From IMG/VR virus record IMGVR_UViG_3300028886_000029, positions 46,007 through 110,006 of that record: a DNA stretch of 64,000 nt; one strand, given 5' to 3'. A program made the position numbers and the translations under genes. This document shows, in pieces, positions 6,248 to 54,497 of the stretch. Source of the DNA: a virus. Taxonomy: Duplodnaviria; Heunggongvirae; Uroviricota; Caudoviricetes. A model generated the notes under the pieces. The model did not search any database. It saw only the letters and a list, made by a program, of their open reading frames with translations, and was not told the DNA's origin. Within the stretch, counting starts at the first letter, position 1. Every line of letters begins with the position of its first letter.

Positions 6248-8190
6248 TTATTTAAAAGTGAATGTGTCATTAATTGAACCACCTTCAACTCTAACCACAT
6301 CACCTGCACTGAAAGTTCTTGCAGTAAATGTTGCAATATTGTCAGTTACGGAAACAGTCTCAACAAAAGTATCATTTACATAAAGTGATAAACTATTATT
6401 ATAGTTAGTATAACATTTAATAACCCTATCTGTCATCTTGGTATAGTCTTTACCACAAATATGTACAAATATATCTGTTGTGTTCCACCATGCCTTGTAA
6501 AGATAGAAAACATCCTTCTTTGTACGATGGTCTCTTTCAACAAGACCCTTGTCATTTAATCTCCTTAAATTATCATTTGTAGATGTAATAACACCGTCAA
6601 GACATACAGTATAACCTTCATTTCTGTTAGACACTGCGATATCAAATAATTGCCATTGTGAAGTGAATAATAGTTGAGGATAGTTCTTAATTGCCGCTAT
6701 ATGACCTTCATGTAACCACATCATATACTCAATATCATGCCTTTCACGATTACCCCTTGTTGTTGTTGTCATATAATCGTCAGAGTGACAATGTTGCGTA
6801 CCGCCACAACCATACTCTGAATAAGCAAGAGCCTTACTCTTATTGGTTATAACGTTCTTAACACGAGTGTTTATCTGAGTTGATGGATTATTTGAATTGG
6901 GGCTACTATACCAACCTTCGTAAATGTTACAACCGAACCAATCAGCATCTGGATTATTATAATATGCACTTGGGTCAGAACCAGGACCTTGAGCCATAAC
7001 ATAACCTACCATACGCTCTGAATCTAAGGCTTTAATTTGTGCAATATAACCATTTATCTTTTCTTTTGCAAAAGCCTTATCATCAGTTGTGGTTTCGTTA
7101 CTTAATCCCCAGAAGCAAATACATGGGTGATTATAATGCTGATTTACCATGTCATTATATTGTCCAATAAGGTGTGTATAATAATCAGCTGGCATTGTTG
7201 ACTGCATTTTATTAACACAAGGTCCTTCTGTCTGTACAATAATACCTAATCTATCACACCAATCATAGGTTTCCTTTGGATGTGGATAGTGTGCAAGGCG
7301 TAGGAAATTAGCACCAAGTTCTTGAATAATGCTGAATGTCTGTGTATAATCATCATCATCCAATGCGTTAGCCTTTCCATCAATATCATCATGCATACAG
7401 CAACCCCTTAACAAATATGGTTGCCCATTAAGTAAGAAGCCTGTATATGTGTCTCCATTGACAGTTTCATTGATTACATAACTATAGAATCTCAAACCAT
7501 AAGGTCTTTGATATGTGTGATACAAATCACCATTATGATAAACATTAAGTGTTATGTTATATAAGTGAGGGTCAGTTGTACCATTCCATAGATGAGGATT
7601 GGTAACAGTTGCACTAAATATCATTTCTTCACCTGTACTACTACCTGACGCACCATAATGATATGTACCATCACTTATCTCACAAGTTACGGTTGCACCT
7701 GTAGGAACACTTGTTTTAACTTCAATGGTTGCGGAAGATAACGCCACATCCGAAGTGACATGGAATCCGTCATATCCATAAATCATATCAGGTACTACAG
7801 GACTTGTATAAAGTTTAACATTACCAAGTGTGGCGTTGAAGTTAAAGTCAGCAATCGCAGGAGCAAGGTTGTTTCCCTCATTATTTTTAAGAGCAACCTT
7901 TACTCTGTTTGTTCCGCTATGAACAAACTCTGATATGTCAACTGAAAACGCAGCATAACCACCCCAGTGTTTTTCCACTAAAACATCATCCACATATATT
8001 GTGGCAGATTGGTCTGCATGTTGGAACCATAAATATGTTGGCTGTACCTCACGCAAAGCGAAACTTGTCTCAAAATTGAATGTTCCCTTTGCATAACTTG
8101 CACTATGGCCATCTATTCTATTAACAGAATATGGTGTTGTTATTTCCTGATTGCTGTAAGTCCATTTGGTTAAATCCCTGTTACATGCTT
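6248..8190 (-). other. GH2 (beta-galactosidase/glucuronidase-like) sugar-binding, Ig-like and TIM-barrel region of the giant fibre protein
   Basis: Motifs N.R.xHYP, WxLxNE and EYG in LacZ order and spacing; FSVDISEFVHSGTNRVKVALKN resembles the GH2 N-terminal sugar-binding domain. Confidence 0.7.
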
Positions 8191-11100
8191 CCAAAGGAAC
8201 ATCACTTATGTATTCGCAAGTTTGTGAAACAACTCTACTTTCTTGGCCATCTTTTTCAGAATATGCCTCTACAACAGTGGTTGCAGATATGACTATTGGT
8301 GTGTTATATGTGGCATAATTATCTTCGCCATTAAGTTTGTAATAAATTGTAGCACCTGTTGTATCACAAGTAATGGTTACGTTGTTATATCCGTCACAGG
8401 AAATGACAGGAGCATCAATTGCCACATCATCATATACTAACCAACCTGTAGGAATGCCGCTTGCACCTTTAGACCAAGTGGATGTGGATGCAGAACTGTC
8501 TTTAACAAATGTACCTGTAGCGGAAACACCACTTGTCCATGATGCTTTACAATTATTTGCGGTAAATCCTGTAGTTGCCATACATTTAATATAATTAAGA
8601 CTTGTACATTCCTCGAACATATGTCCATAACATTCCGCAACAAGTGTTGTGGCAGGTAATTCAGGTGCTACCTCAAATGATGCTGATTTGTCAAACATAT
8701 ACCAATAACAACCTTTTGCTAACGTTGTTGCCGGTAATTCGACAACTTTAACTAACTCATAACATCTACTAAACATTGCACGATAGCAATACTCTTTTAA
8801 TGTGGTTGCAGGTAAGACGAGGTTTTCTGCTGATACAACATTTGTTAATTTAAACAATGAACAGAAGTTATATGTTCCTGTAAGTGCGGTGTTTCCAACA
8901 AAGTTATCACCGTAAACAAGACTCATTATGTTACCTTCTATATTAAATGTTGCGCCGGTTCCACCACCTACATTGGCTTCGGATGAACCAAACGCTGAAT
9001 AATTTGATTTATCATTTGCGTATGATATGTTAGTTCCTTTGAACCTTATAACATCTCCTGTTACAACCGATATTGTAGTTGAAGTACTTGGTGTTAAAGT
9101 TGTCCATGCACCATCATTTTTACTATATTGAATTGTTTTAGAAAAACCGGTTCCAACTAAATTCCAACCGATTGTACCATCTGAAAGAACTCTGAACGTA
9201 AGATAATCAAGGGAATAGTCATGAACATCACTATATTCACAAAATGCACTTACGATAGTACTTACTACACTATCTTTCTCAGAATATGCCTCAACTATTG
9301 TGTCTGCTGAAATAACTATTGGTGCATTATATAAGGAATATGTTCCTTCTTCGTTTAATCTATAGTTTATATCAGCACCTACTGTGTGACATGTAATTGT
9401 AACTACAGTTCCATTGCATTCAATGATAGGTGCTTTAAGTGAATCATCATAAACACAAGTGGCTGAGACAACTTCACTTTGTCTACCGTCAATTTCAGAA
9501 TATGCATAACATACTGTGTCTGCTGAAATCGCAATTGCTGAATCATATGGATTATAAATAGGGTCTAAATCAAACTTATAATAGATTGACGCACCTCCTG
9601 TTGCACAAGATATGGTGACATACTCACCATCACAATATATAACAGGTTCATCAATTCCATCATCATATATACAAGTTTCACTGACAACCTCACTTGTTTC
9701 CTCATCTAACATAGAGTATGCTTCAATGAAAGTATCAGCAGAAATTGATATAGGTGTGGAATATAATGCGTAATCACCTTGACTATTCAATTTGTAATAA
9801 ATGCTTGCACCTTGTGTTGAACATACCAAAGTTATATGGAGACCATCACAAGATATGACAGGTGCTTGAAGTCCCTCATCAATAACATCCCATCTTGTAG
9901 GAATACCACTAATACCAAGAACCCATTCTGTACTGGCATTTTTAATAAATGTACCTGATGATGCCACACCTGTAACCCAATTAGCAGTTGCTGCTGATGC
10001 AGAAATATCAGTGGCTAAACATTTAATATAATTCAAGTTATGACAATTGTTAAACATTCCTTCATAACAATCATAAACCAACACAGGTGCAAGAAGTTCA
10101 GGTGCGGTTCTTATTGCATTATATTGGAACATATAACGATAGCAACCTTCCGCAAGTGTTGTTGCCGGTAACGCAGGTGCAATTGCTACTGTTTCACTAT
10201 TGGCAAATAATGCACGATAACAGTATGGTGTCAAAGTGGTTGCTGGTAAGACGAGGTTTTCTGCTGATATAACATTTGCTTGCTTAAACAATGAACAGAA
10301 GTTAAATGTTCCTGTAAGTGCGGTATTTCCAACAAAGTTATCACCGTAAACAAGACTCATTATGTTACCTTCGACATCAAACACCGCAGTTCCACCACTG
10401 AATCCCATGTAATCCTCATTGGTTGTACCATAAGATGCATTAGAACCCTTGATTCTTACCACATCATCCTCAGACACAGTTATTGAAACAGATGAACCAA
10501 CAGATGATGGCACTAAATATGTCCATGAACCATTGTTTAGACTATACTGAATTGCCTTCACTTGTTGTGTGCCAACAGAATTCCAAGAAATTGTTCCGCC
10601 AGATTTAACCCTAAAGGTAAGATAGTCAAGAGAATAATCATGTGTTTCACTATAAATACACATTTCACTGACAACCTGACTTGTTTCCTCATCTAACATA
10701 GAGTATGATTCCACAAAAGTATCGGCAGTTATTGGGAATGTTTGTGTATATGCACTGTATCCACCAACATGGTTACATTTATAATAAATGGTTGCACCTT
10801 CGGTTTCACAAGTAATGGTAACACCTGTTCCGTCACAAGTAATAACAGGTGCTTTCACGCCTTCTTCTTCATATCTACAAACCTCAGTGACAGTATCACT
10901 ATTAACATCACAATATACCGCATAAGCATCAACAATTGTGTCAGCACTTATTGTGAATGCTGATGTATATTGCATAAAACTTCCGGTTTGATTTAGTTTG
11001 TAATATATATCAGCACCTGTTGTTTCACAAGAAATGGTAACAACATTATGACTACAAGATATAACAGGAGTATAAAGTTGCTCAAGTCTTCTGATTGAGA

Positions 11101-12355
11101 AATTTTTCACATCAATATCCGAATATCTGAACGGGTCTCCATTCTCATCCATAGCATAACCAATTGTGACCTTAATATATCTAAGGTCATCAATGTCTGG
11201 GAATTTTCCATTACTTGTATATACATTTTGTCCTGTTGCCATGTTTCTACAAATAAAAGAATTTGTTGAAACGGTAGGGTTGTATATAATTCTAAGGTTA
11301 TATTCAAGGTTATTACCTGTTGTAGGCATTGGTTGTATTGTAGTATTAATATTACTTCCAGTAGAGAACTGTGTACCCAACGTAATTGTTTTTGCTGTGA
11401 GTGTTTGTCTTAATTGGAATCCGTACCAAGGTGAAGGTGAACTTCTTTTCGCTGTCAGTATATTATGGTGATTTTCGTTTTGTCCAGTTGGACTGTTATT
11501 ACAATTGATAACAAAATGTATGTCAGCGATAAATCCTTGTGTCACATCAAAAGCATAGTATTCAGTGTTGACACCATCACCGTTAAATTCTTTAGTACCA
11601 TCTGGATTACCTGAAGTGTCAATTTGATAACCTGTCACAGTTGTATTACCACTTTCATCGTACTCAACTTCCTGACTACTCACATTACCGCTTGTATCAC
11701 CACTTTGATTAATACCATCGGTGGCATTACCTTCACTATCATAGTTGGTTGTTGTGGCATTAAATGAACCATCAGAATTAATATCTTTATTACTTTCACT
11801 TGAACCGATTGTGTTACCACTTTCATCTGTGACAACTGTTGTTGTGATAACAGATGATGAACCATCCTCGTTTGTTGTGGTGGTTGTTGTGGTTGTGGTT
11901 GTGTTACCACTTTCATCTATATCAATTTCAGTTTCAGTCTCACTTGTTGAACCTGTATAATAAGTTAATGTTAATTCTTGTGTGGTTGCCACATTAAGAT
12001 ATGATGCCTGTATAATAACATTGCTTTCATTTGCTGTAGACAAAATTTCAACTTCACCTGTATGTGCGCTTATTGTGGCATAAGAAGAACCACTAACAAT
12101 ACTCCAAGTCGCAGCAGTTGTCACGTTTGTCATATTATCATATATTGCGGTAAAAGAACATGACACACCACTTATGCTTGTGATACCACCTATAGTCAAG
12201 GTGTGGTTTCCGTCAACAGAACCACCAAACATTACCACATTTGATGATACAAAATTTTCAAATGTGGTAGCATCTATTGTTTCCCAAACGCCATTATTTT
12301 TTCTATAATAACCGGAAACAGGTTTCCATGTATTATTTACTTTCTGATAATCCAT
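6248..12355 (-). CDS. Giant multidomain tail fibre/tailspike-like protein (2035 aa): Thr-rich N-region, Fn3-associated/CHB_HEX_C-like repeats, two LRR-like paralogous fibre domains, C-terminal glycoside hydrolase family 2 (GH2) catalytic module
   Basis: At least 7 copies of APVI(T/S)CDG..VTI.C.T.GA.IYYKLN...Y..Y..PI.ISADT.VEAYS. Two copies of the GNIMSL...LPATTL..CY..MF..C..L...NYIKCLATDISA...GIP.GW domain. C-terminal LLRGCCMHDD, NFLRLAHYPHP...CDRLGIIVQTE, CFWGLSNE (acid/base Glu), YSEYGCGG (nucleophile Glu) match LacZ-type GH2 signatures. Confidence 0.8.
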   Translation of the reverse strand: MDYQKVNNTWKPVSGYYRKNNGVWETIDATTFENFVSSNVVMFGGSVDGNHTLTIGGITSISGVSCSFTAIYDNMTNVTTAATWSIVSGSSYATISAHTGEVEILSTANESNVIIQASYLNVATTQELTLTYYTGSTSETETEIDIDESGNTTTTTTTTTTNEDGSSSVITTTVVTDESGNTIGSSESNKDINSDGSFNATTTNYDSEGNATDGINQSGDTSGNVSSQEVEYDESGNTTVTGYQIDTSGNPDGTKEFNGDGVNTEYYAFDVTQGFIADIHFVINCNNSPTGQNENHHNILTAKRSSPSPWYGFQLRQTLTAKTITLGTQFSTGSNINTTIQPMPTTGNNLEYNLRIIYNPTVSTNSFICRNMATGQNVYTSNGKFPDIDDLRYIKVTIGYAMDENGDPFRYSDIDVKNFSIRRLEQLYTPVISCSHNVVTISCETTGADIYYKLNQTGSFMQYTSAFTISADTIVDAYAVYCDVNSDTVTEVCRYEEEGVKAPVITCDGTGVTITCETEGATIYYKCNHVGGYSAYTQTFPITADTFVESYSMLDEETSQVVSEMCIYSETHDYSLDYLTFRVKSGGTISWNSVGTQQVKAIQYSLNNGSWTYLVPSSVGSSVSITVSEDDVVRIKGSNASYGTTNEDYMGFSGGTAVFDVEGNIMSLVYGDNFVGNTALTGTFNFCSLFKQANVISAENLVLPATTLTPYCYRALFANSETVAIAPALPATTLAEGCYRYMFQYNAIRTAPELLAPVLVYDCYEGMFNNCHNLNYIKCLATDISASAATANWVTGVASSGTFIKNASTEWVLGISGIPTRWDVIDEGLQAPVISCDGLHITLVCSTQGASIYYKLNSQGDYALYSTPISISADTFIEAYSMLDEETSEVVSETCIYDDGIDEPVIYCDGEYVTISCATGGASIYYKFDLDPIYNPYDSAIAISADTVCYAYSEIDGRQSEVVSATCVYDDSLKAPIIECNGTVVTITCHTVGADINYRLNEEGTYSLYNAPIVISADTIVEAYSEKDSVVSTIVSAFCEYSDVHDYSLDYLTFRVLSDGTIGWNLVGTGFSKTIQYSKNDGAWTTLTPSTSTTISVVTGDVIRFKGTNISYANDKSNYSAFGSSEANVGGGTGATFNIEGNIMSLVYGDNFVGNTALTGTYNFCSLFKLTNVVSAENLVLPATTLKEYCYRAMFSRCYELVKVVELPATTLAKGCYWYMFDKSASFEVAPELPATTLVAECYGHMFEECTSLNYIKCMATTGFTANNCKASWTSGVSATGTFVKDSSASTSTWSKGASGIPTGWLVYDDVAIDAPVISCDGYNNVTITCDTTGATIYYKLNGEDNYATYNTPIVISATTVVEAYSEKDGQESRVVSQTCEYISDVPLEACNRDLTKWTYSNQEITTPYSVNRIDGHSASYAKGTFNFETSFALREVQPTYLWFQHADQSATIYVDDVLVEKHWGGYAAFSVDISEFVHSGTNRVKVALKNNEGNNLAPAIADFNFNATLGNVKLYTSPVVPDMIYGYDGFHVTSDVALSSATIEVKTSVPTGATVTCEISDGTYHYGASGSSTGEEMIFSATVTNPHLWNGTTDPHLYNITLNVYHNGDLYHTYQRPYGLRFYSYVINETVNGDTYTGFLLNGQPYLLRGCCMHDDIDGKANALDDDDYTQTFSIIQELGANFLRLAHYPHPKETYDWCDRLGIIVQTEGPCVNKMQSTMPADYYTHLIGQYNDMVNQHYNHPCICFWGLSNETTTDDKAFAKEKINGYIAQIKALDSERMVGYVMAQGPGSDPSAYYNNPDADWFGCNIYEGWYSSPNSNNPSTQINTRVKNVITNKSKALAYSEYGCGGTQHCHSDDYMTTTTRGNRERHDIEYMMWLHEGHIAAIKNYPQLLFTSQWQLFDIAVSNRNEGYTVCLDGVITSTNDNLRRLNDKGLVERDHRTKKDVFYLYKAWWNTTDIFVHICGKDYTKMTDRVIKCYTNYNNSLSLYVNDTFVETVSVTDNIATFTARTFSAGDVVRVEGGSINDTFTFK

Positions 12356-12766: not shown

Positions 12767-13567
12767 TTATTCAAAACATATTCTTTTTATTGCATTGACA
12801 TGTATTTGAGCAATAACATCTCTACCCTCGTCAGACATAAGAAACTCACAATCTTTCTTATTGTCGAAAAATAAATTTTCAGTTAATATCGCAGGACATA
12901 ATGTCTTATATATCACAGTGAAATTAGCCTCATAATCTGGGTCACCATCGGTCATATCTTTTCTCATGGTCATACCATACTCAGGTAACAATTTGTTTGC
13001 CTCATTCCAGAACACGGTCGCTATATCATCTGATTTGGTTATACCCTTGGTTGTATATACTGACCAACCCCTTGCGTTTTTCCATTCCTTTCCATTTCCA
13101 GCCGCATTTGAATGAACAGATATGAACAAACAATTATTTTTCCCATATTGGTTACAATATTTGTTTGCTCTGTTCGCTCTTGTGGACAACGGTATATCCT
13201 CTTCCAACTCAGGTACTATAACATGATATTTAACACCTAATTTATCTAATTTTTCGGTAATCCTTTTAACAATGTCCCTATTAAACTCATACTCATAGAA
13301 TCTTGTTCCATCTTCAAAAAAAGGTCCTTTTTTCCCCACTGTTGACCTCGCGTGACCATTGTCTAAAAGAATCACTTTACCATTATAATTGTACATATCT
13401 TCCTTACTATTTTCCACAATACCGGCATTAGACTCAACTGTCTCTTCAATTGTCTCATTTTTTTTGTTTTCTGAAAATGAAAAACCTAAAAAAACAAGTA
13501 TTTTATTAAAAATTTCCTGTATTGTCATTATTAAACATTTTACATATAAATAGTCTATTGAATTCAT
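12767..13567 (-). CDS. N-acetylmuramoyl-L-alanine amidase (Amidase_3 family) endolysin
   Basis: VILLDNGHARSTVGKKGP...E...N....IA..L..L.....V..........R...AN......FISVHSNAAG......GWSVYT matches the Amidase_3/AmiC-like pattern. Confidence 0.75.
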   Translation of the reverse strand: MNSIDYLYVKCLIMTIQEIFNKILVFLGFSFSENKKNETIEETVESNAGIVENSKEDMYNYNGKVILLDNGHARSTVGKKGPFFEDGTRFYEYEFNRDIVKRITEKLDKLGVKYHVIVPELEEDIPLSTRANRANKYCNQYGKNNCLFISVHSNAAGNGKEWKNARGWSVYTTKGITKSDDIATVFWNEANKLLPEYGMTMRKDMTDGDPDYEANFTVIYKTLCPAILTENLFFDNKKDCEFLMSDEGRDVIAQIHVNAIKRICFE

Positions 13568-16335: not shown

Positions 16336-16707
16336 ATGATTAACATCATAAACATAAACACAGATAAAACAACTTATCCGAACTATTATTATATAGGGAG
16401 GCCAAGTATTTTATCCAATCCTTACACTTATTTGGATGTTGAGAAAACACTTGCTTTGTTTCAGTGTTCTGATAGGGAAGAAACAATAGAAAAATATGGT
16501 GAATATTTTGACATTATGTATGGCCATAACAAGGAGTTTACTGATATTGTTGATGAGATTTTTGAAAAATACAAAAACGGTGAGGAAGTTTATCTTGGTT
16601 GTTTCTGTAAGCCCAAAACTTGTCATGGGGATGTGATAAAGAAAAAATTAGAGGAACGCTTAATAAAAGAAAAAATAAAAGCAATACGTAAAAGAAATGA
16701 AAGATAG
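16336..16707 (+). CDS. DUF4326-like protein
   Basis: YYIGRPSILSNPY and CFCKPKTCHGDVI resemble the DUF4326 pattern (YIGR...GNPF, CWCxPxxCHGD). Confidence 0.5.
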   Translation: MINIININTDKTTYPNYYYIGRPSILSNPYTYLDVEKTLALFQCSDREETIEKYGEYFDIMYGHNKEFTDIVDEIFEKYKNGEEVYLGCFCKPKTCHGDVIKKKLEERLIKEKIKAIRKRNER

Positions 16708-28644: not shown

Positions 28645-29562
28645 CTAAGCATCAACCCTTGTCCAACCATTTGGAATACCACTTGTACCTGTTTTTGATG
28701 ACCAATCGGTAGTTGATGGGGTGACAAATGTACCTGTTGATGTTTGGACACCTTGTACCCAATACATTGTATAATCACTTGCTGATATATCTGTGGCAAG
28801 ACATTTAATATAATTAAGATTAGTACAACCTTGGAACATACTACTATAACAATAATTTGCCAATGTAGTAGCAGGAAGTTCAGGCGCGGTGGTAAGGCTT
28901 GTACAACCATAGAACATACTACTATAACAAATCTTTGCTAATGTTGTTGCAGGTAACTGTGGTGCTGTTGTTAGACTTGTACAATCTTGGAACATACCAT
29001 TATAACAACTTTCTGTTAATGTAGTTGCAGGTAACAGTAGTTTACTTGCATCAGTTAAACCGGTACAAGCAGCAAATAAGATATAAAATGTATAATCACT
29101 TTCGAATGTGGTCAGTCCACTGAAATTAGTTGAGTTAATCAAAGACATTATATTACCCTTAACCTTGAATTGTGCAGTACTACCGCTGAATGTGTTATAA
29201 TAAGATGATGTGCCATATGTGGTGTTATTTCCACGGAACTGTAAGGTGTCACCTGACACAACTGATATACTTGGTACTGATGAGCCGGTATTACTTGTAA
29301 TGGATGTCCATGTCGCACCATTATCTTTACTATATTCAATGGTTTTAGTTAATGCGGTGTTACGTGCATTCCAAACAATATTACCGCCACCCGTTATCTC
29401 AAATGTAAGTGGTGTCTCAAGTAAACCAAAAGGCCACTTTTCTTTATTATAATCAACTTTGGTATTTTCCTCAGTATAAGATACCCAAGGCTCAAGATAA
29501 TTATTATTTCTTGCCGTTGTATATTCGGTAACTGTGTCAAATTTGTGGATGTATCTACTCAT
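28645..29562 (-). CDS. Tail-fibre paralog with LRR-like (BspA/DUF285-like) LPATTL-CY..MF..C repeat domain; start moved to MSRYIHKF
   Basis: Start MSRYIHKFDTVTEYTTARNNNYLEPWVSYTEENTKV aligns with the N-terminus of 36035..37309. Repeats LPATTLTESCYNGMFQDCTSLTTAPQ / LPATTLAKICYSSMFYGCTSLTTAPE / LPATTLANYCYSSMFQGCTNLNYIKCLATDISA. The track ORF's extra 24 hydrophobic codons are probably not translated. Confidence 0.65.
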   Translation of the reverse strand: MSRYIHKFDTVTEYTTARNNNYLEPWVSYTEENTKVDYNKEKWPFGLLETPLTFEITGGGNIVWNARNTALTKTIEYSKDNGATWTSITSNTGSSVPSISVVSGDTLQFRGNNTTYGTSSYYNTFSGSTAQFKVKGNIMSLINSTNFSGLTTFESDYTFYILFAACTGLTDASKLLLPATTLTESCYNGMFQDCTSLTTAPQLPATTLAKICYSSMFYGCTSLTTAPELPATTLANYCYSSMFQGCTNLNYIKCLATDISASDYTMYWVQGVQTSTGTFVTPSTTDWSSKTGTSGIPNGWTRVDA

Positions 29563-29689
29563 AATTAATTTAGTAATTTTACTTGTTATTATAATAATAA
29601 ATATTTTAACAATAAGGAAAATCATCATCCTCACGAAAAATATTCCTTATTATTTTTACCATTGTTTTTGTTTTTCTGCATGATTTTTA

Positions 29690-32970: not shown

Positions 32971-34164
32971 ATGAAAGCATCAGATTTAATTGATTTTACC
33001 AATTGTTCTATAAATTGGGAAGCGGTAGAGCAGGTTCCTGAATTTGCCGTTTTGAAAAACTGTGAGCAAAATCCTAAATGGCATAGTGAAGGCGATGTCA
33101 TGACACATACTATGAAGGTTTGTGATGTTGTCATTGACATGATACTAAATTGGAGGGGAAGATGTTTAGCCGCTGAGATTGAGGACGCTGATGTTCTTTT
33201 GACTGCCGCCCTTTTTCATGACATCGGTAAAGGCGTAACCACAAAAATAGGTAAGGATGGTAATTGGCACAGTTATGGTCACGAATTTGAGGGTGAGAAA
33301 ATAACAAGAAGATTGTTATGGGATGAGGATTTGTCTTTTAGGGAAAAAGTATGCGCGTTAGTTAAATACCACATGCTTCCACTTAATATAATCAAACATA
33401 AGAACTATATAGAGGAGATTATAAGGTTGTCTTGTCAAGTCAATCTGTTGCAACTATATAGACTTAAATATGCTGACTGTATGGGGTCTGAACATAGTTC
33501 TGAAATCAAGTGCGATGAAATGAGAATTTTAAACCATTTCACTAGGTTGGTTGATTTTTTAAAACTTTCAGAGACTAAGCCATATTTTTGTAACAAGTAT
33601 CTTTTTAATCTTAATGATTATGAACTTAACATCAAAAAACCAAGTGTTAATTTGTTCATGATGATTGGTTTGCCTGGTTCAGGAAAAAACACCCTTATTG
33701 ATGATTTGTTTGATGATAATAAAACAATAACGTTGTATGACGGTGATGAGTTTCTATATAGGTTCCAAGAAGGGAAGACTGAAATCCTGTCAAGGGATGA
33801 TATTAGAGCAGAATTGGGATTTTGCGCTGATGGTCAAAAAATTGTCGGCACAAAGGAACAGGAAGATAAGGTAACCGAAATTTTCAACCAAAGAATGTTA
33901 CATGCGGCATCATGTGGCCATGATATTGTTATCAATAACATAAACCTTAAAAAGAAATACAGGGAAGAAATAGTTAACACACTCTCAAAAGAGTATAACG
34001 TTATAACCGATTACTTATATGTTGAGGCTAAGGGTATCGAAAAAAACATTGAAAGAAGAAAAAATGACGGTTTCAGTAAAGAGACATTTGAAAAAATGAT
34101 TGAGAACTTTGACTGGCCAGATTTTTTTGAGTGTGGTAATAATTTATACATTTTTAGAAATTAA
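32971..34164 (+). CDS. Bifunctional HD-domain phosphohydrolase / P-loop (AAA_33, polynucleotide-kinase-like) kinase; start moved to MKASDL
   Basis: N-terminal domain: HSEGDVMTHT...ALFHDIGKG...GH...KYHMLP (HD motifs as in CCA-enzyme/cyclic-phosphodiesterase HD domains). C-terminal domain: MMIGLPGSGKNTLIDDLF Walker A. Confidence 0.6.
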   Translation: MKASDLIDFTNCSINWEAVEQVPEFAVLKNCEQNPKWHSEGDVMTHTMKVCDVVIDMILNWRGRCLAAEIEDADVLLTAALFHDIGKGVTTKIGKDGNWHSYGHEFEGEKITRRLLWDEDLSFREKVCALVKYHMLPLNIIKHKNYIEEIIRLSCQVNLLQLYRLKYADCMGSEHSSEIKCDEMRILNHFTRLVDFLKLSETKPYFCNKYLFNLNDYELNIKKPSVNLFMMIGLPGSGKNTLIDDLFDDNKTITLYDGDEFLYRFQEGKTEILSRDDIRAELGFCADGQKIVGTKEQEDKVTEIFNQRMLHAASCGHDIVINNINLKKKYREEIVNTLSKEYNVITDYLYVEAKGIEKNIERRKNDGFSKETFEKMIENFDWPDFFECGNNLYIFRN

Positions 34165-35944: not shown

Positions 35945-36034
35945 AAGTTTTAAAAAAACCAAAGAATATTTTTCGTGAGAGTAGTGATTTTTCCTTATTA
36001 TTGTAATATTTAATATTATAATAATAAGGAAAAA

Positions 36035-37309
36035 TTGTTAAATTATATGGGAGAAGTAAAAGAATACATCCATTTATTTGAAACTGAAAACGAATATAAT
36101 ACAAAAAGAAATTTTGATTATCTTGAGCCTTGGGTAAGTTATACTGAGGATAACACCAAGGTTAATTATAATATGACTGAGGAAGAAAGAAAATTCTCAA
36201 CACCGCTTACATTTGAAATAACAGGTGATGGTGATATTTATTGGAAAGCAAAATCAGATAACAGTTTACGAACAATAGAATACAAAAAAAACGATGAGGA
36301 TTGGGTAACAATCACCTCAAGCACTGGTGGTACCTCTATCACGGTGTCGTCAGGCGATACAGTGCTTTTTAGAGCACCGCAAGGTGTTACATATACAACA
36401 TTAAGTGACACATATGAAAAAGCTAATTTTTTTAGCGGTTGTACTTGCACTTTCAACGTTAAAGGTAATGTTATGTCACTGCTTGACGCAAATAATTTCA
36501 GCACGATGTCCTCGTTGACAGCTTCCTTGGTTTTTACTTGTTTGTTCAGGTATTGTACGGGTTTGACTGATGCAAGTAAACTTATTTTACCGGCAGATAA
36601 CTTGACCGTTGAATGTTATAGGGAAATGTTCGCAAATTGTTCAAACCTTGTTGGTGTGCCTAAACTACCTGCAATGAACCTCGGTGAAGGTTGTTACAAC
36701 GGTATGTTCCATGATTGTACAAATCTTACCACAGTACCTGAACTACCTGCGACAACATTAGCAAGTAACTGTTATGATTTTATGTTTGCGTCTGACACTG
36801 GTTTAACTGACGCAAGTGGGTTAGTATTACCTGCAACAACATTAGCAAATAATTGTTATAGTCAGATGTTCAGGGGTTGTACAAGTCTAACAACAACACC
36901 TGAATTACCTGCGACCACATTAGCTAATAGATGTTATTATTATATGTTCAGGGAATGTACAGGCTTAACCACTGCACCTGAGTTACCTGCGACTACATTA
37001 GCTGATGGTTGTTATTATAGGATGTTCTATGGTTGCACAAGTCTTACAACCGCACCTGAGTTACCTGCAACAACATTAGTAAATGAATGTTATAGAGGTA
37101 TGTTCGGATGGTGTACTGAACTTAATTATATTAAATGTCTTGCTACTGATATATCAGCAACTGATTGTACATTGGATTGGGTAGAAAGTGTGGCATCATC
37201 AGGTACATTTGTTGCGGCAAATGACGGTGTTGATTGGACAATAGGTGTTAACGGTATACCTGTTAATTGGAATAGAATAAATGAAAAATCCCAACCTTTA
37301 ACATTTTAG
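36035..37309 (+). CDS. Tail-fibre paralog with LRR-like LPATTL repeat domain (7 repeats); ends at an in-frame TAG
   Basis: Domain GNVMSL...LPADNLTVECYREMFANCSNL.../LPATTL...CY..MF..C..L.../NYIKCLATDISA...GIPVNW shared with 28645..29562 and both copies in the giant fibre. Confidence 0.65.
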   Translation: MLNYMGEVKEYIHLFETENEYNTKRNFDYLEPWVSYTEDNTKVNYNMTEEERKFSTPLTFEITGDGDIYWKAKSDNSLRTIEYKKNDEDWVTITSSTGGTSITVSSGDTVLFRAPQGVTYTTLSDTYEKANFFSGCTCTFNVKGNVMSLLDANNFSTMSSLTASLVFTCLFRYCTGLTDASKLILPADNLTVECYREMFANCSNLVGVPKLPAMNLGEGCYNGMFHDCTNLTTVPELPATTLASNCYDFMFASDTGLTDASGLVLPATTLANNCYSQMFRGCTSLTTTPELPATTLANRCYYYMFRECTGLTTAPELPATTLADGCYYRMFYGCTSLTTAPELPATTLVNECYRGMFGWCTELNYIKCLATDISATDCTLDWVESVASSGTFVAANDGVDWTIGVNGIPVNWNRINEKSQPLTF

Positions 37310-38071
37310 ATAACTAATGACGGTATAATCTATTGGGGGACACTGGGCACCGGTTTTACCAGAACTATTGAGTATAGTAAAGATAATGGCTCAACATGGA
37401 CATCCATAACTTCCACAAGAGGTGAAACACTTATACAAGTTGTTTCAGGTGACACCTTACAATTCCGTGGAAATAACGCAAATTATGCAACATATCCTTC
37501 AGGGGGAAAAAAAATATCATTTAACGGATTCATGAGTAGTACGGCAGGATTCAAAGTAAAAGGTAATATAATGTCGTTGATTAATAGTATTAATTTTGGT
37601 ACATTAACCACATTGGAAAATGCTTATACATTTTATGGATTATTTACTCATTGTACAGGTTTAACCGATGCAAGTGAACTACTGTTACCTGCAACAACAT
37701 TGACACAGAGTTGTTATGGTAGTATGTTCCAAGGTTGTGAAAGTTTAACTACAGCACCTTCGTTACCTGCAACTACATTAACAGAAGGCTGTTATTATGA
37801 AATGTTCATTGGTTGTACAAATCTAACCACAGCACCTGAATTACCTGCAACAACATTAACAGATTATTGTTATTATCAGATGTTCGAAGGTTGTACAAAT
37901 CTTAACTATATTAAATGTCTTGCAACTGATATATCAGCAAGTAATTGTACATATAATTGGGTAAATAGTGTAGCAAGTACAGGTACATTTGTTAAACACT
38001 CATCAATGGCATCTTGGACAACAGGTACAAGTGGTATTCCGACAGGTTGGACAGTACAGGATAATGTTTAG
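37310..38071 (+). CDS. Second tandem fibre-domain unit continuing in the same frame after TAG 37307-37309 (first ATG only at 37532); split gene, readthrough product or pseudogene
   Basis: Frame is open from 37310. ITNDGIIYWGTLGTGFTRTIEYSKDNGSTWTSITS... aligns to the N-terminal part of the paralog domain (PLTFEITGGGNIVWNARNTALTKTIEYSKDNGATWTSITS). The TAG sits at the conserved Glu of PLTF-E-ITG. Confidence 0.5.
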   Translation: MTNDGIIYWGTLGTGFTRTIEYSKDNGSTWTSITSTRGETLIQVVSGDTLQFRGNNANYATYPSGGKKISFNGFMSSTAGFKVKGNIMSLINSINFGTLTTLENAYTFYGLFTHCTGLTDASELLLPATTLTQSCYGSMFQGCESLTTAPSLPATTLTEGCYYEMFIGCTNLTTAPELPATTLTDYCYYQMFEGCTNLNYIKCLATDISASNCTYNWVNSVASTGTFVKHSSMASWTTGTSGIPTGWTVQDNV

Positions 38072-38097
38072 GTTAACAAACAATAAAAGACAAAAAA

Positions 38098-38135
38098 AGA
38101 GAGATAGGTATCTATCTCTCTTTTTCTTTTCTTTT
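38098..38135. terminator. Bidirectional terminator
   Basis: AGAGAGATAGGTATCTATCTCTCT palindrome followed by TTTTTCTTTTCTTTT. Confidence 0.6.
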
Positions 38136-38847: not shown

Positions 38848-38980
38848 ATACTAATATTTTTTTTTCTTTATACTTTTTTAGGGAATGATATACTTGTTTG
38901 CACAAGATTTACTATCTTAACGTTTACTTTCGATTCCGTTCATAGCCCCACTTCCCGATGGGGATTCCATTTATTTATTA
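38848..38980. ncRNA. Putative guide-RNA scaffold (tracrRNA/omegaRNA-like) region at the 3' end of the TnpB/Cas12f-like gene
   Basis: GC hairpin CCCCACTTCCCGATGGGG (38946-38963) immediately followed by ATTCCATTTATTTATT (38964-38979), which is complementary to the ATAAATTAAATGGAAT part of the CRISPR repeat. Overlaps the gene's stop codon. Strand and extent unknown. Confidence 0.3.
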
Positions 38981-40131
38981 TTAATTTCTTCTATTTTTTG
39001 TTCAATGCCAATTAATGCCTGTGGATGTAACCCCATGTTCTTAATATTAATTGCTGCATTTACATCTCTATCATGATGTTCACCACATATTGGACATATC
39101 CATTCTCTATCAGATAACTTCAGTTCCTTGTCAATGTATCCACATTTGTTACATGTCTTACTACTTGGTTCATATCTACCAATGAATACAATGTTCTTTC
39201 CACACCATTCACACTTGTATGTCAATTGTCTAACAAATTCATTCCATGCAACACTATTTATACTCTTTGCAAGATTATGATTCTGTGTCATACCAGTAAT
39301 GTTAAGATTCTCCATACAAAATGTGTCATATTCACCATTAATCAACATGGTTGTTAACTTATGAAGAAAATCATTTCTTCTGTTAGCAATTTTTCTATGT
39401 AACTTTGCTACATATAATTTTGCTTTTTCATGACGTTTACTATTTTTTTGTGTTCTGGAAAGCCATTGTTGTGCTTTTGCTAACTGTTGTTGTTTTGCTT
39501 CAAGATACTTAGGATTTCCGTACTTTGTACCGTCAGATAGAATTGCATAATCTTTAACACCTAAGTCAATGCCAACAGTTTTTTCCTCACATATCTTGGT
39601 TTTCGATACGTTTGGTTTATTGTCATCAACTACTATGGTACACCAATAATCACCACATTTATCTTTTGTAACAGTTAAAGTACCCAATTTTACTGTGTTT
39701 ACATCAAATTCGCAATTTTTAAGAAATTTAACTTTACCTATACATGGCACTGATACTCTCATGGTTTCAAAATCAAAGTGAACAGCAGCAATGTATTTAA
39801 CAGAATCAACACTATTTTTCTTTGATTTAAATTTAGGAAAGCCTTTTTTTGCTTTAAAGAATCTGGTATAGGCATTATCAAGGTTTCTAAGTGATTGTTG
39901 TAGACAAACGTTAGCACATTGTTTCAGCCAATCATGTTCACCGTCTTTTTTAAGTAAAGTAAGTTCTTTGGCCAGTTGTATATATGTAACATTTTTATGT
40001 TCCTTTTCCCAGGTTTCTTTTTTACGATTAAGTCCCCAATTATAGATAAAGCGAGCATTACCAAAGGCTTGTGAAAACAATTTTTGTTGTTTCACAGTTG
40101 GTTTAAGTTTATATTTATATGCTCTTGTCAT
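38971..40131 (-). CDS. TnpB / Cas12f-like RuvC-fold RNA-guided endonuclease candidate (IS605 OrfB family), 386 aa
   Basis: N-terminal MTRAYKYKLKPTVKQQKLFSQAFGNARFIYNWGL (TnpB hallmark). RuvC-I GIDLGVKDYAILSDG, RuvC-II TFCMENLNITGM, zinc finger CNKCGYIDKELKLSDREWICPICGEHH, RuvC-III DRDVNAAINI. Catalytic D/E/D all present. Confidence 0.75.
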   Translation of the reverse strand: MTRAYKYKLKPTVKQQKLFSQAFGNARFIYNWGLNRKKETWEKEHKNVTYIQLAKELTLLKKDGEHDWLKQCANVCLQQSLRNLDNAYTRFFKAKKGFPKFKSKKNSVDSVKYIAAVHFDFETMRVSVPCIGKVKFLKNCEFDVNTVKLGTLTVTKDKCGDYWCTIVVDDNKPNVSKTKICEEKTVGIDLGVKDYAILSDGTKYGNPKYLEAKQQQLAKAQQWLSRTQKNSKRHEKAKLYVAKLHRKIANRRNDFLHKLTTMLINGEYDTFCMENLNITGMTQNHNLAKSINSVAWNEFVRQLTYKCEWCGKNIVFIGRYEPSSKTCNKCGYIDKELKLSDREWICPICGEHHDRDVNAAINIKNMGLHPQALIGIEQKIEEINNK

Positions 40132-40170
40132 AAGATGAATAGATTTTTATTTTTTCTATTTATAAATAGT

Positions 40171-40333
40171 TTATTAATGTAAAAAAGTAAATAAAATTAC
40201 AACTTCTGTTCTTGTCAAGATGCCTCATGGCAGATGTTAGTCAACCATAAATTAAATGGAATTACAACCTGTCAGGCTTTTTAGGTTTGTTAGACTAGGT
40301 GTTAGTCAACCATAAATTAAATGGAATTACAAC
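40171..40333. CRISPR. Mini CRISPR-like array: degenerate repeat (40171-40203), spacer 1 (40204-40235), repeat (40236-40268), spacer 2 (40269-40300), repeat (40301-40333)
   Basis: Two identical 33-bp repeats GTTAGTCAACCATAAATTAAATGGAATTACAAC separated by a unique 32-bp spacer and preceded by another 32-bp unique segment plus a degenerate repeat (3' 22 nt 18/22 identical). Lies 40 bp from the TnpB/Cas12f-like gene start. A possible third spacer and a decayed repeat follow (40334-40398). Confidence 0.55.
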
Positions 40334-40398
40334 TTTCTCGTTCTATCAAATTGATTTTCCGAGCATTAACCCACACACCAATGGGTAATATTTCTTAT

Positions 40399-45351: not shown

Positions 45352-46215
45352 TTAGACTTTAACAAAACTAAGTGCCCTATGCAACTTTTTAGTCACATCA
45401 TTAATAACTTGCCTAATCCTTTCCGATGTCAGTCCAAGTTCCTCACCGATTTCATAGTTATTATACTCTTTGTCATAACCAATGCCAAAGTACATTTTGA
45501 CTATTGTTCTATCTCTTTCATTAAGCATGGACAACAATTTGCTGACAAGTGTTTTGGTATATTCCTTGTCAATTGTCTCCTCATACTCATTATAACTTGC
45601 GGTTTTGTCAGTAAATGCTTTAGTGTCTTCCAAAGTGTTCTGGTCTTCGTCAATGTACTCATTAACTGACTCAGTTGTGATGTCAAACACATCACTCTGT
45701 TTGAGTATTGTGATGTCAAAATCTTTTTTCAACATATCAATTATCTCATCTTCGGTTGGATACCTGCCATTAAGACCAAAATACTTGTTTTTAACCTTGG
45801 TCATTTTGTTACCCAATTTAATGTTGTTTGTTCTTCTGACAAACATATTGGTGTTCATTATGTAATACTGAATACTTCTCCTGATGTACCAAACAGCATA
45901 TGACAAAAACCTTGTTCCCTTAGTAGTATCATATTTGTCAATATCATTTATGACTGACATAAGACCGAGGTTACCCTCGTCAATTAAATCCATGATGTTA
46001 TCGTTGTTGGCATACCTTTTCGCAATAGCCACAACAAATCTCTGATTACTGTTTATGAGTTTTTCTTTCGCCTCATTGTCCCCATTTTTTATTTTAAGTA
46101 TAAGGTCATACTCCTCCTCCGCTGAAAGTACGGGATATTTATTGATTTCCCTAAAATACCTTGCAAGTGTGTCACTCCTCTCAATAAGATTCCCTTTAAT
46201 AGTCTTAATGTCCAT
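45352..46215 (-). CDS. Sigma-70-family RNA polymerase sigma factor
   Basis: Region 2 (LINSNQRFVVAIAKRY...DLIDEGNLGLMSVINDID...FLSYAVWYIRRSI) and region 4 HTH (ERDRTIVKMYFGI...EIGEELGLTSERIRQV). Confidence 0.75.
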   Translation of the reverse strand: MDIKTIKGNLIERSDTLARYFREINKYPVLSAEEEYDLILKIKNGDNEAKEKLINSNQRFVVAIAKRYANNDNIMDLIDEGNLGLMSVINDIDKYDTTKGTRFLSYAVWYIRRSIQYYIMNTNMFVRRTNNIKLGNKMTKVKNKYFGLNGRYPTEDEIIDMLKKDFDITILKQSDVFDITTESVNEYIDEDQNTLEDTKAFTDKTASYNEYEETIDKEYTKTLVSKLLSMLNERDRTIVKMYFGIGYDKEYNNYEIGEELGLTSERIRQVINDVTKKLHRALSFVKV

Positions 46216-52848: not shown

Positions 52849-53085
52849 ATGAAGAGATTTTTTAAATTTTTGGTTGGTTTTTTTAAAGGTATCGGTTGGA
52901 AAAAGTTTTTGAGAAACCTTTTAATCTGTGTGGCGACACTTGGCATTATTTTCACGTTGTTTTTCTTGGTGGGTATGCTTATAAGTGCTAAACCTGTTTT
53001 GGGCATAATAGTGTTGGTAGCCCTTATTTTAACAATAATTGGTATACAAGCATTAATAGTTAAGAAATATGGAAGAGATTTATAA
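52849..53085 (+). CDS. Small two-TM membrane protein
   Basis: LLICVATLGIIFTLFFLVGMLI and VLGIIVLVALILTIIGIQALIV hydrophobic segments. Confidence 0.35.
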   Translation: MKRFFKFLVGFFKGIGWKKFLRNLLICVATLGIIFTLFFLVGMLISAKPVLGIIVLVALILTIIGIQALIVKKYGRDL

Positions 53086-53785
53086 CAAAATGAAAACCAC
53101 CAATGAGCAAATGGACGAGCAAATTGGTAACATGAGAAGCTTCAGGGGTTTTATTGACAAACATGGTTTGAAAGGCACATTCTCAACATTACTCATAATG
53201 TTTGTGGCCGCTTGTATAGGTTTTTTCGTTCTTAATCCTGGCGTTGTTTTTGAGAAATTCCAAGAGTACAATATCGAAAAACACGAGGAAGGAATAAAAC
53301 AAAGATTGGAGGCAGACCCACATATACGTGTTCTTCTTGCTGATTTCAGGACATCAGTCAACGCTGACAGGGCATATATTCTTGAGGCACACAATGGTGG
53401 CACAAACCTTAACAATCTTCCGTTTTTATATGCAGACCTTACTTATATGGACCCAAGAAACAGATATGACTATATTGAGTCCGAATATAAGAATTTCAGA
53501 CTATCAAGATACCCATGGGCATCATATGTCATAGAACACGGTTATTGGTTCGGTCCTATTGAGGACTGTATGGAAAGTGACCCTGAACTGTATTACAGGC
53601 TTAAAAATGAGGATGTCGCCTACATGGGTATGTTTGTCATGCATGGTAAAAACGGTTTGCCAACCGCTTGTTTGGGTGTGATTTTCAAAACCAATGAAGA
53701 TGGGATAACACCAACATCAAGGGATGTTATCAAACAAATGCAAATCTACGCGTCACAAATAAATGTTTATTTAATGGGTAACTAG
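53069..53785 (+). CDS. Hypothetical membrane-anchored protein
   Basis: One N-terminal TM (LLIMFVAACIGFFVL) then a 200-aa soluble domain. Confidence 0.45.
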   Translation: MEEIYNKMKTTNEQMDEQIGNMRSFRGFIDKHGLKGTFSTLLIMFVAACIGFFVLNPGVVFEKFQEYNIEKHEEGIKQRLEADPHIRVLLADFRTSVNADRAYILEAHNGGTNLNNLPFLYADLTYMDPRNRYDYIESEYKNFRLSRYPWASYVIEHGYWFGPIEDCMESDPELYYRLKNEDVAYMGMFVMHGKNGLPTACLGVIFKTNEDGITPTSRDVIKQMQIYASQINVYLMGN

Positions 53786-53786
53786 T

Positions 53787-54497
53787 ATGGCAAAGTTCAC
53801 TGAAAACGATATACAATATATGGTAATGGAATCCGTCAAAAAAATCCTAAAAGAATCTTTAGTGAGATATTATGTGGTGGATGACGGTGGCACTTATAAT
53901 GTCTTGTCATCTGATATGTTTGACGCTAACGGCAGATATATTGAGAACAAATCCTATACCATAGACGATTTTGATATCATCAAAACAACAAACAACGAGG
54001 AAATCGCTTGGAAATATGCCGACAAATTGAACAGGGAATACCAAGAACAATACGGAAATTTCCAACCCTCTGACGGTTACTTTAATGAGTCTAAAATCAG
54101 GGTGTCTGAGTCTAAACTTAACTCGCTTATCAAGGAATGTCTCACTGAGGTGATTAATGAGGATTTCCTTAGTGGAAACCAATTTGATAACATCTCAGAT
54201 GAGGAACTTTCAAAATTCGGTGAAAACTATTATGATGTCATTGTCCCTGAGTGGGCATTAAACGCACTTGTCAACGGTGATTACAGCGGTCTTGACGATG
54301 AGGACATCGCTGATGTGAAAGCATTTGAGAGAAACTTTGTTAAAGGCGGAACTTGTGAGTTGTATAATGGACTTACAGCAGGTGACTTCTGCGTTCCAAT
54401 GGAAGGCACATCACCTTCTTTCTATGAGAAAAACGACATCAATCACAAAGGTGCCAATTGTTATAGGTTCGCTTTTATTGCTAAACAGGATAACTAG
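53787..54497 (+). CDS. Hypothetical protein with shared N-terminal motif (FTENDIQYMVMESVKKILKES)
   Basis: Motif family member. Confidence 0.45.
   Translation: MAKFTENDIQYMVMESVKKILKESLVRYYVVDDGGTYNVLSSDMFDANGRYIENKSYTIDDFDIIKTTNNEEIAWKYADKLNREYQEQYGNFQPSDGYFNESKIRVSESKLNSLIKECLTEVINEDFLSGNQFDNISDEELSKFGENYYDVIVPEWALNALVNGDYSGLDDEDIADVKAFERNFVKGGTCELYNGLTAGDFCVPMEGTSPSFYEKNDINHKGANCYRFAFIAKQDN

Follow-up and report, generated by a model that had tools for sequence, protein, structure and literature searches.

Programmed readthrough of a stop codon is known from phage Qbeta, where it gives the C-terminally extended minor protein A1. Stop codons have also been reassigned in recoded phage clades, in which 26–71% of genes carry in-frame stops and suppressor transfer RNAs (tRNAs) are common (bioRxiv 10.1101/2021.08.26.457843), and the gut phages that read TAG as Gln (genetic code 15) include crAss-like and Lak phages (bioRxiv 10.1101/2021.08.26.457843; PMC9523058). 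Genes with Palindromic Amphipathic Repeat Coding ELements (PARCEL) vary in their number of repeats, are shuffled within genomes and occur together with mobile elements, and some of their open reading frames (ORFs) are truncated or “untargeted” (PMC2996958). The PARCEL family corresponds to NCBIfam TIGR02167 and overlaps with Pfam DUF285 and the BspA-type LRR_5. Here, we describe a PARCEL/BspA-like gene for a protein of two modules with 26-residue leucine-rich repeats (LRRs), which is interrupted by a single in-frame TAG in a 64,000-nucleotide (nt) stretch of Caudoviricetes DNA, positions 46,007 to 110,006 of the IMG/VR record IMGVR_UViG_3300028886_000029, named here as the window. The window is part of the ENA contig ERZ27256887:k141_2525523 (112,376 bp; MEGAHIT assembly) of an uncultured phage with low guanine-cytosine (GC) content (34%) from a gut or rumen-type metagenome. 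The TAG is most probably an ordinary recent truncating nonsense allele of a two-module PARCEL/LRR accessory gene, and not a case of recoding or programmed readthrough. The gene family and the type of lesion are both of already known kinds.

The locus shares with PARCEL proteins the tandem 26-residue repeats of conserved pattern LPxxxLxxxCYxxMFxxCxxL, and its intact ortholog from a sister phage passes the TIGR02167 model. It also shares the allele-variable repeat number, paralogs scattered in one genome, a mobile element nearby (a TnpB gene ~900 nt downstream) and the “untargeted” or truncated ORFs of uncertain expression. It differs from them in being phage-borne and in having the repeats framed by an N-terminal beta-sandwich and a C-terminal cap as a reusable module. 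With ordinary nonsense and frameshift alleles of phage accessory genes, the locus has in common a single premature stop, intact orthologs and other independent disruptive alleles. Nothing essential sets it apart from these; its stop lies ~4 residues past a domain boundary, so that the truncated product would be a complete module.

Architecture of the gene and position of the TAG

Reading frame 2 of the window is open from 36035 to 38071 with the first ATG at 36047, and its sole interruption is the TAG at 37307–37309, in agreement with an earlier reading of this DNA (the sequence-only reading). Across the stop, the frame reads QPLTF-X-ITNDGIIYWGTLGTGFTR, where X is the TAG codon. The motif at the module start is PLTF-E-ITG in module 1 and in a paralog at 28645–29634, and PLTF-stop-ITN at module 2. 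The TAG had been placed at a conserved Glu codon, which holds for module 1, for this paralog and for the orthologs described below, but not for two more distant modules of a 2035-residue protein, where Arg is found at the equivalent position. The proposal that TAG is one substitution away from GAG did not stand, as both the ortholog and module 1 of the window have GAA at this position, which is two changes away from TAG.

The module 1 ORF (36047–37306, plus strand), as delimited by repeat parsing, has 420 codons and would encode the product that is actually made. It comprises an N-terminal leader (~50 residues), a beta-sandwich, seven 26-residue PARCEL/LRR repeats and a C-terminal cap ending in GIPVNW, which is followed by an 11-residue tail, RINEKSQPLTF. 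ENA and JGI both list the exact 420-residue product. The TAG (37307–37309, plus strand) stands in place of GAA (Glu421) of the intact alleles, in the first beta-strand of the module 2 sandwich. The AlphaFold2 model of the intact ortholog (predicted local distance difference test, pLDDT, 92.5; predicted template modelling score, pTM, 0.74) contains sandwich, solenoid and cap, each twice, and in this model, Glu421 lies in strand 417–422, ~4 residues past the last elements of module 1. As judged from the model, the product of the TAG allele would be a complete leader-plus-module protein, comparable to the natural single-module members of the family such as the paralog at 28645–29634 and P0088.

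The remnant of module 2 (37310–38071, plus strand) has 253 sense codons followed by a TAG stop and no canonical start of its own. It contains a beta-sandwich, three 26-residue repeats as counted by the LPxxxL motif and a C-terminal cap ending in GIPTGWTVQDNV. The absence of a normal start, also pointed out in the sequence-only reading, was confirmed: the earliest in-frame ATG, GTG or TTG after the TAG is at 37532, and only ATA, ATC, CTG and ATT are found in frame before it. For reinitiation near the stop, the single nearby ATG, at 37317, is in another frame and meets TAA after three codons. Gene finders called an ORF of 179 residues (37532–38071, plus strand) that starts inside the sandwich, at about its last strand, with an ATG that is ATT (Ile) in the intact allele. 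A bidirectional intrinsic terminator hairpin with a stem of 14–16 bp and a T-run was found at 38092–38127, just past the module 2 stop. The locus has no other strong terminator, and there is none behind the TAG at 37307; therefore, the transcription unit is still shaped like the ancestral single gene and module 2 would still be transcribed.

The repeats follow the pattern LPATTLxxxCYxxMFxGCTxLTTAPE at an exact spacing of 26 residues, with seven copies in module 1 and three in module 2. Against TIGR02167 (Liste_lipo_26, PARCEL), the intact ortholog (P0001) scored 56.8 bits with a curated cut-off of 30 bits, and the two fragments of the window taken separately scored below this cut-off (22.6 bits for module 1 and 16.3 bits for module 2). 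The Pfam scan of the locus proteins gave nothing at E ≤ 0.01, and under relaxed settings only LRR_5 (PF13306, BspA-type) was weakly matched, in module 2 only (E = 0.05; 13.9 bits vs a cut-off of 27.7). At least 8,000 relatives of the hypothetical read-through protein were found in a large protein collection; many are 800–1170 residues long, with precomputed PF13306, BACON, BNR or fimbrillin domains. The consensus of an alignment of 43 relatives is a two-module polypeptide (...GIPxGWTVxxxxxxxLTFxxLxDGxI...), and this tandem arrangement is the majority architecture across the family. Each 26-residue repeat of the AlphaFold2 model has single-residue strands at ~8- and ~18-residue spacing, and the top Foldseek matches in PDB were all LRR proteins, including the gut-bacterial BspA-like 4h09 and 4fdw, albeit weak (E at least 0.015). 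We read the locus as a single ancestral gene that encoded a two-module protein of the PARCEL/BspA-like kind with 26-residue LRRs. It had been described as tandemly duplicated; modules 1 and 2 are only ~50% identical to each other and the two-module form is the family majority; this is not a recent local duplication.

Alleles in sister phages and age of the stop

The top match of the read-through query is a protein of 864 residues (P0001), which is 91% identical over 94% of the query. It is encoded on a 27-kb scaffold of a different sample (L003, ERZ28614831), which is syntenic throughout and has flanking proteins 98–99% identical to those of the window. This scaffold reads ...NEKSQPLTFEITGDGTIYW... 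without interruption, giving QPLTFEITGDG with the codon GAA in the DNA. The second intact allele (P0122), on a syntenic contig of a third sample (L013, ERZ27280571), is also a single 864-residue ORF with Glu at the TAG position. The cluster at 90% contains P0001, P0122 and three more members, namely the 420-residue product of the window and the products of two other lesions. One of these lesions (L012, ERZ919318) is an 88-nt out-of-frame deletion in module 1 of an allele otherwise 100% identical to that of L003, and leaves ORFs of 127 and 711 residues. The other (L006, ERZ932019) is a 259-nt out-of-frame deletion that removes the junction, running from just after the module 1 cap to the position of the ATG at 37532, and its module 1 ends in ...NWKRIEVQHHSK before a stop (...RIEVQHHSK). 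Because two of the five alleles in these near-identical genomes are intact and three are broken independently at different places, the allele set bears the signature of a dispensable gene or of fluctuating selection, and not of a programmed stop.

Comparison of the orthologous locus, proposed earlier as a check, gave a sense codon in the relatives, although GAA and not the expected GAG. The codon is GAA in L003, the L012 allele is identical to L003 there, P0122 has Glu and the site is deleted in L006. Of the options listed in the sequence-only reading, the alleles of L003, L013 and L012, which read through with Glu, support the first, a two-domain protein whose gene recently acquired a nonsense mutation or varies in the population. 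The same alleles count against site-specific readthrough, in which a leaky TAG, or one suppressed by a phage or host suppressor tRNA, would give a major 420-residue and a minor 673-residue isoform: the stop is not conserved, with GAA or Glu in three other alleles, and the frameshifting deletions of the other two lesions are beyond rescue by readthrough.

The identical TAG and flanks were found in a second assembly, a Logan contig of SRR9008757 (L005), and four contigs on record carry the 179-residue ORF, which can be called only if the long frame is interrupted. A sequencing error as the source of the TAG is very unlikely for these two reasons. The sequence is a metagenome consensus and the locus is rich in repeats, which would be in favour of an error in sequencing or assembly that hides a true sense codon. 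Against this, the same change is seen in the MEGAHIT contig of ENA and in the Logan contig, TAG differs from GAA at two positions within non-repetitive sandwich-coding sequence, and the five neighbouring substitutions are all in-frame sense changes; we hold such an error to be extremely improbable.

When compared with the L003 allele, module 1 showed 98.1% nucleotide identity, a synonymous divergence (dS) of 0.042, a nonsynonymous divergence (dN) of 0.013 and a ratio (omega) of 0.32. The alignable part of module 2 showed 88.8% nucleotide identity, dS of 0.15, dN of 0.11 and omega of 0.75 (1.3 in the LRRs). Module 2 is a different allele, with a repeat array that lacks, in frame, 570 nt of that in the ortholog. 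It keeps all 48 of the near-invariant family positions that could be aligned. When ~85 neutral substitutions were simulated, ~3.7 additional stops were expected and the probability of none was 0.02. Since the 48 positions are kept and no further stop is present among ~85 differences, most of the divergence of module 2 would predate the stop or would have come from a functional allele. Decay after inactivation or relaxed selection alone was ruled out as the cause of this divergence, as dS was raised too and the conserved positions were all kept. The stop itself appears to be young.

The TAG lies in a cluster of seven differences within 24 nt, whereas the surrounding sequence is 96–98% identical (P = 0.0005). 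A second cluster, of nine differences within 24 nt (37528–37551), is located 225 nt downstream and gives rise to the ATG at 37532, where L003 has ATT. Because the differences are clustered in patches, short-tract recombination or gene conversion is suggested, and recombination may have produced the TAG patch. A donor for the 30-nt TAG patch was searched and no second copy was found in the window even with up to three mismatches. It was also noticed that the 259-nt deletion of L006 (L006 1772), which starts right after the module 1 cap, ends within 1–2 nt of the codon at 37532 of the window. This end coincides with the difference cluster at 37528–37551.

The patchy difference clusters, the raised dS of module 2 and the change in repeat number could also be read as traces of a silent cassette, where an untranslated module 2 would be a reservoir recombined into module 1, into the paralog at 28645–29634 or into the 2035-residue protein, varying the specificity of host interaction. 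Such untranslated reservoirs have been proposed in the PARCEL literature (PMC2996958), and four paralogous modules are present within 30 kb. No donor-recipient tract was found, however, with the TAG patch being single in the window as described above; the paralogs, at 46–65% identity, are a poor substrate for homologous exchange, and the intact alleles indicate that the segment is normally translated. A silent cassette is thus very improbable. The sequence-only reading had also drawn attention to a G5A8 tract at 37502–37514; the tract is present, but it has no visible role and is identical in the intact allele, where it encodes SGGKKISF. Phase variation at this tract was ruled out because it is unchanged in the intact allele.

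Decoding of the TAG and fate of module 2

Under genetic code 11, the window contains 65 ORFs of at least 80 residues at a coding density of 0.872, and recoding of TAG would change the density to 0.876. TAG ends 10 of the 65 ORFs (15%), more than TGA (8). In these TAG-ended ORFs, the next stop comes 0–23 codons on or the next gene's own ATG follows, and several have a second stop immediately. The ORFs ending at 16707, 53785 and 54497, which had been taken earlier as evidence that TAG is a genuine stop, have 0–5 further codons to the next stop and support that claim. An in-frame TAG is carried by only one of ~65 genes in the window, so that the proposed count of such codons argued against recoding, and the genes of 1479 and 732 residues in the flanks beyond the window are intact. 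The search for suppressor tRNAs with ARAGORN gave no tRNA in the window and in L007, L008 and L010 (record positions 33639–112376, ~79 of 112 kb). Global TAG recoding, already considered unlikely in the sequence-only reading, was ruled out by the coding density, the stop usage and the lack of a tRNA in these ~79 kb. Pyrrolysine or other special decoding of TAG was dropped, as the orthologs have Glu and there is no other in-frame TAG; supporting genes were not seen, and no search was aimed at them.

Like the TAG-to-Gln phages of code 15, the phage studied here is of low GC and of gut or rumen type, and has its in-frame TAG in a non-replication gene. Unlike in them, one gene is interrupted, recoding brings no gain in coding density, TAG ends 15% of the genes, no suppressor tRNA was found in ~79 kb, and the orthologs have Glu and not Gln or TAG. 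The geometry is the same as in the readthrough of Qbeta A1, with a short product ending at the stop and the frame continuing into a further domain. It differs from Qbeta A1 in that the stop is not conserved in relatives, is TAG and not a leaky UGA and has no stimulatory structure, and the extension is a part of the ancestral ORF and not an add-on.

Some features of the locus would nevertheless accommodate site-specific readthrough. Module 2 is undecayed, with all 48 conserved positions and no further stop or frameshift, and lies within the transcription unit, the terminator being only beyond it. TAG recoding evolves in low-GC gut phages, and the tRNA search covered ~79 of the 112 kb of the contig. 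The base after the stop is A, and this is not known as the strongest context for termination in E. coli. On the other side, the 126 nt around and after the stop showed no stimulatory RNA structure (minimum free energy of −18.7 vs a shuffle mean of −21.4 kcal/mol, z = +0.92), TAG is the normal terminator of 10 genes, and the interruption of one gene in ~65 contrasts with the 26–71% in recoded clades. Along with the alleles of the sister phages and the lack of a tRNA in ~79 kb, these results make readthrough or suppression improbable, and no meaningful amount of the long isoform is likely to be made. None of the other options raised in the sequence-only reading, be it an error in sequencing, programmed readthrough or suppression by a tRNA, found support.

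Two bona fide genes would be present if module 2 had been salvaged as the 179-residue protein, starting at the ATG at 37532 and comprising the last sandwich strand, the LRRs and the cap. Its initiation would use an A-rich context of the Bacteroidota type that lacks a Shine-Dalgarno sequence, provided by the G5A8 tract 17 nt upstream. The ATG is specific to the TAG allele and falls in the second tight cluster of changes, the ORF is predicted on four contigs and its LRR and cap portion is intact. Such a start, however, is inside the folded sandwich (strand 503–508 of the model) and ~75 residues of the domain would be lost, and promoter-like sites were not above chance (10 found vs 11.1 expected). 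Furthermore, the A-rich tract is the same in the intact allele, where it merely encodes a part of the protein, and among the family matches inspected there was no protein starting there. Two separate genes are accordingly quite improbable.

We thus favour the nonsense allele, which would have arisen as follows. The ancestral gene would have encoded two modules, each with a beta-sandwich, a 26-residue LRR array and a C-terminal cap, and in this lineage TAG would have replaced the codon for Glu in the first module 2 strand. Under the standard code, translation would end there and give the complete 420-residue single-module protein, which is expected to fold and work, and module 2 would be silent, its transcript untranslated beyond background readthrough. 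The stop probably came with, or soon after, a short recombination patch. The gene seems to diversify by gain and loss of repeats and by patchy exchange, and the TAG allele would stand beside other, independently arisen loss-of-function alleles in a dispensable and hypervariable accessory gene.

Several points weigh against the nonsense-allele explanation. Module 2 is intact apart from the TAG, as would also be expected if it were still expressed or served as a donor in recombination. The TAG is known from the assembly consensus, in which a mixture of TAG and sense codons within the population is not visible. The tRNA search excludes ~33.6 kb of the 112-kb contig, and also a 363-kb contig that carries the same 179-residue ORF. 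ERZ27256887 and SRR9008757 may be the same or sister samples, so that the two TAG assemblies may not be biologically independent. The silence of module 2 is deduced from sequence. Readthrough, a salvaged 179-residue protein and a silent cassette are unlikely when taken jointly. There is also a slim chance that the TAG is a switch that sets the ratio of one-module to two-module LRR protein, for example through suppression late in infection by a tRNA encoded in the third of the genome beyond the tRNA search, or that it is a first step towards TAG recoding, with an in-frame TAG tolerated in a dispensable gene. If that were true, the lineage would have been caught at the outset of the path by which low-GC gut phages are proposed to evolve TAG recoding. 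A long isoform, if made, would be a rare readthrough control in a double-stranded DNA phage, and nothing found here points to it.

For annotation, the callers give a 420-residue gene and a spurious-looking 179-residue gene in place of what is really one two-module gene with a premature stop. The locus provides a small and clean example of the turnover of phage repeat genes, with a nonsense codon, two out-of-frame deletions, a change in repeat number and patchy exchange. It also illustrates that, in a gut or rumen phage, an isolated in-frame TAG does not amount to recoding unless it has genome-wide support.

Paralogs, the fibre label and genomic surroundings

The single-module paralog, with leader and one module, is at 28645–29634 on the minus strand and has PLTFEITGGG at its module start. 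Module 2 is 65% identical to the segment at 28651–29397 (minus strand) of this paralog (tblastn E = 6e-94), and ~46% identical to the two modules of the 2035-residue ORF at 6248–12355 (minus strand). These two tandem modules are uninterrupted at 8423–10621 (minus strand; about 8423–9202 and 9866–10621), and their starts, YLTFRV, are at residues 579 and 1052 of the protein. The ORF contains Glyco_hydro_2 domains (GH2; N-terminal, middle and TIM-barrel) and several chitobiase/Fn3-associated domains (CHB_HEX_C), and is a precedent within the same genome for several modules in one polypeptide. The protein may be virion-associated and may degrade or bind glycans. An Amidase_3 gene (12767–13567) adjoins this ORF. 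The module was also seen in an unrelated viral contig of 21.9 kb (IMGVR_UViG_3300028591_000820), where a 656-residue protein (L001 22–1992) has one PARCEL/LRR module, 41% identical, between Ig-like N- and C-terminal regions. Because it is embedded in a protein of this unrelated contig, the PARCEL/LRR module is a portable cassette in phage proteins. The gene of the 656-residue protein is directly upstream of genes that, by inspection only, resemble small and large terminases.

The name “fibre” given to the gene in the sequence-only reading was not sustained, as fibre homology is lacking, the neighbours belong to nucleic-acid metabolism and the fold is an LRR solenoid. The search for fibre or receptor-binding homology gave no Pfam fibre domain, and the sole PHROG match was phrog_9915, of unknown function. 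The tblastn of module 1 against 50,697 phage records gave no match, megablast and tblastn of the locus against the same records found nothing, and exact-pattern scans for the junction in IMG/VR and JGI metagenome contigs also found nothing. By inspection, the N-terminus shows no evident lipoprotein or signal sequence. The gene sits among nucleic-acid-metabolism genes, and its neighbours encode a UvrD-type helicase, an AAA protein, an HD/AAA_33 kinase-like protein, an RlaP nucleotidyltransferase, two metallophosphatases and TnpB. A role in binding of the host surface is a plausible guess, since the same module occurs twice in the 2035-residue protein with GH2 and chitobiase C-terminal domains. 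The nearest cultured relatives by helicase are Bacteroides phages of 166–179 kb, at ~34% identity.

Directly upstream of the gene start, an AT-rich palindrome of 24 nt with 96% complementarity (ATTTTTCCTTATTATTGTAATATT / AATATTATAATAATAAGGAAAAAT) is present at 35987–36035; it may serve as an operator or promoter element, or may terminate the upstream gene. A weaker related inverted repeat (AACAATAAGGAAAAT / ATATTCCTTATTATT) at 29608–29654 straddles the upstream end of the paralog ORF. Dyad symmetry of the repeat-coding DNA has been described for PARCEL (PMC2996958).

Downstream of the locus by ~900 nt, between a metallophosphatase gene and a gene for 152 residues, is a TnpB/OrfB_IS605 gene (38971–40131, minus strand; 386 residues) with no TnpA beside it, in an insertion spanning ~38848–40398. 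This insertion is present in the TAG-bearing contigs (the window and L005) and absent at that site in L003, L013 and L012; L003 has instead an insertion with a serine recombinase and a 546-residue TnpB (IS607-like) elsewhere. In both L003 (7163–8152) and L012, a gene for 329 residues lies between the HD/AAA_33 and RlaP genes, and the window is without it. Relocation of the paralog between genomes was rejected, as this gene is unrelated to the 329-residue PARCEL paralog of the window.

The block downstream of the locus contains a gene for a sigma-70 family protein of 287 residues (45352–46215, minus strand) with Sigma70_r1_2, r2 and r4 domains. The ORFs at 53069–53785 and 53787–54497 (plus strand), of 238 and 236 residues, are 1 nt apart, both end in TAG, have no PHROG match and may be a tandem pair. 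The exact 179-residue product is also found on a contig of 363,317 bp (JGI, Logan and ENA) that does not have the exact 420-residue product; the 112-kb contig may represent only a part of a much larger phage genome, or the phage may be integrated or mis-joined in this longer contig.

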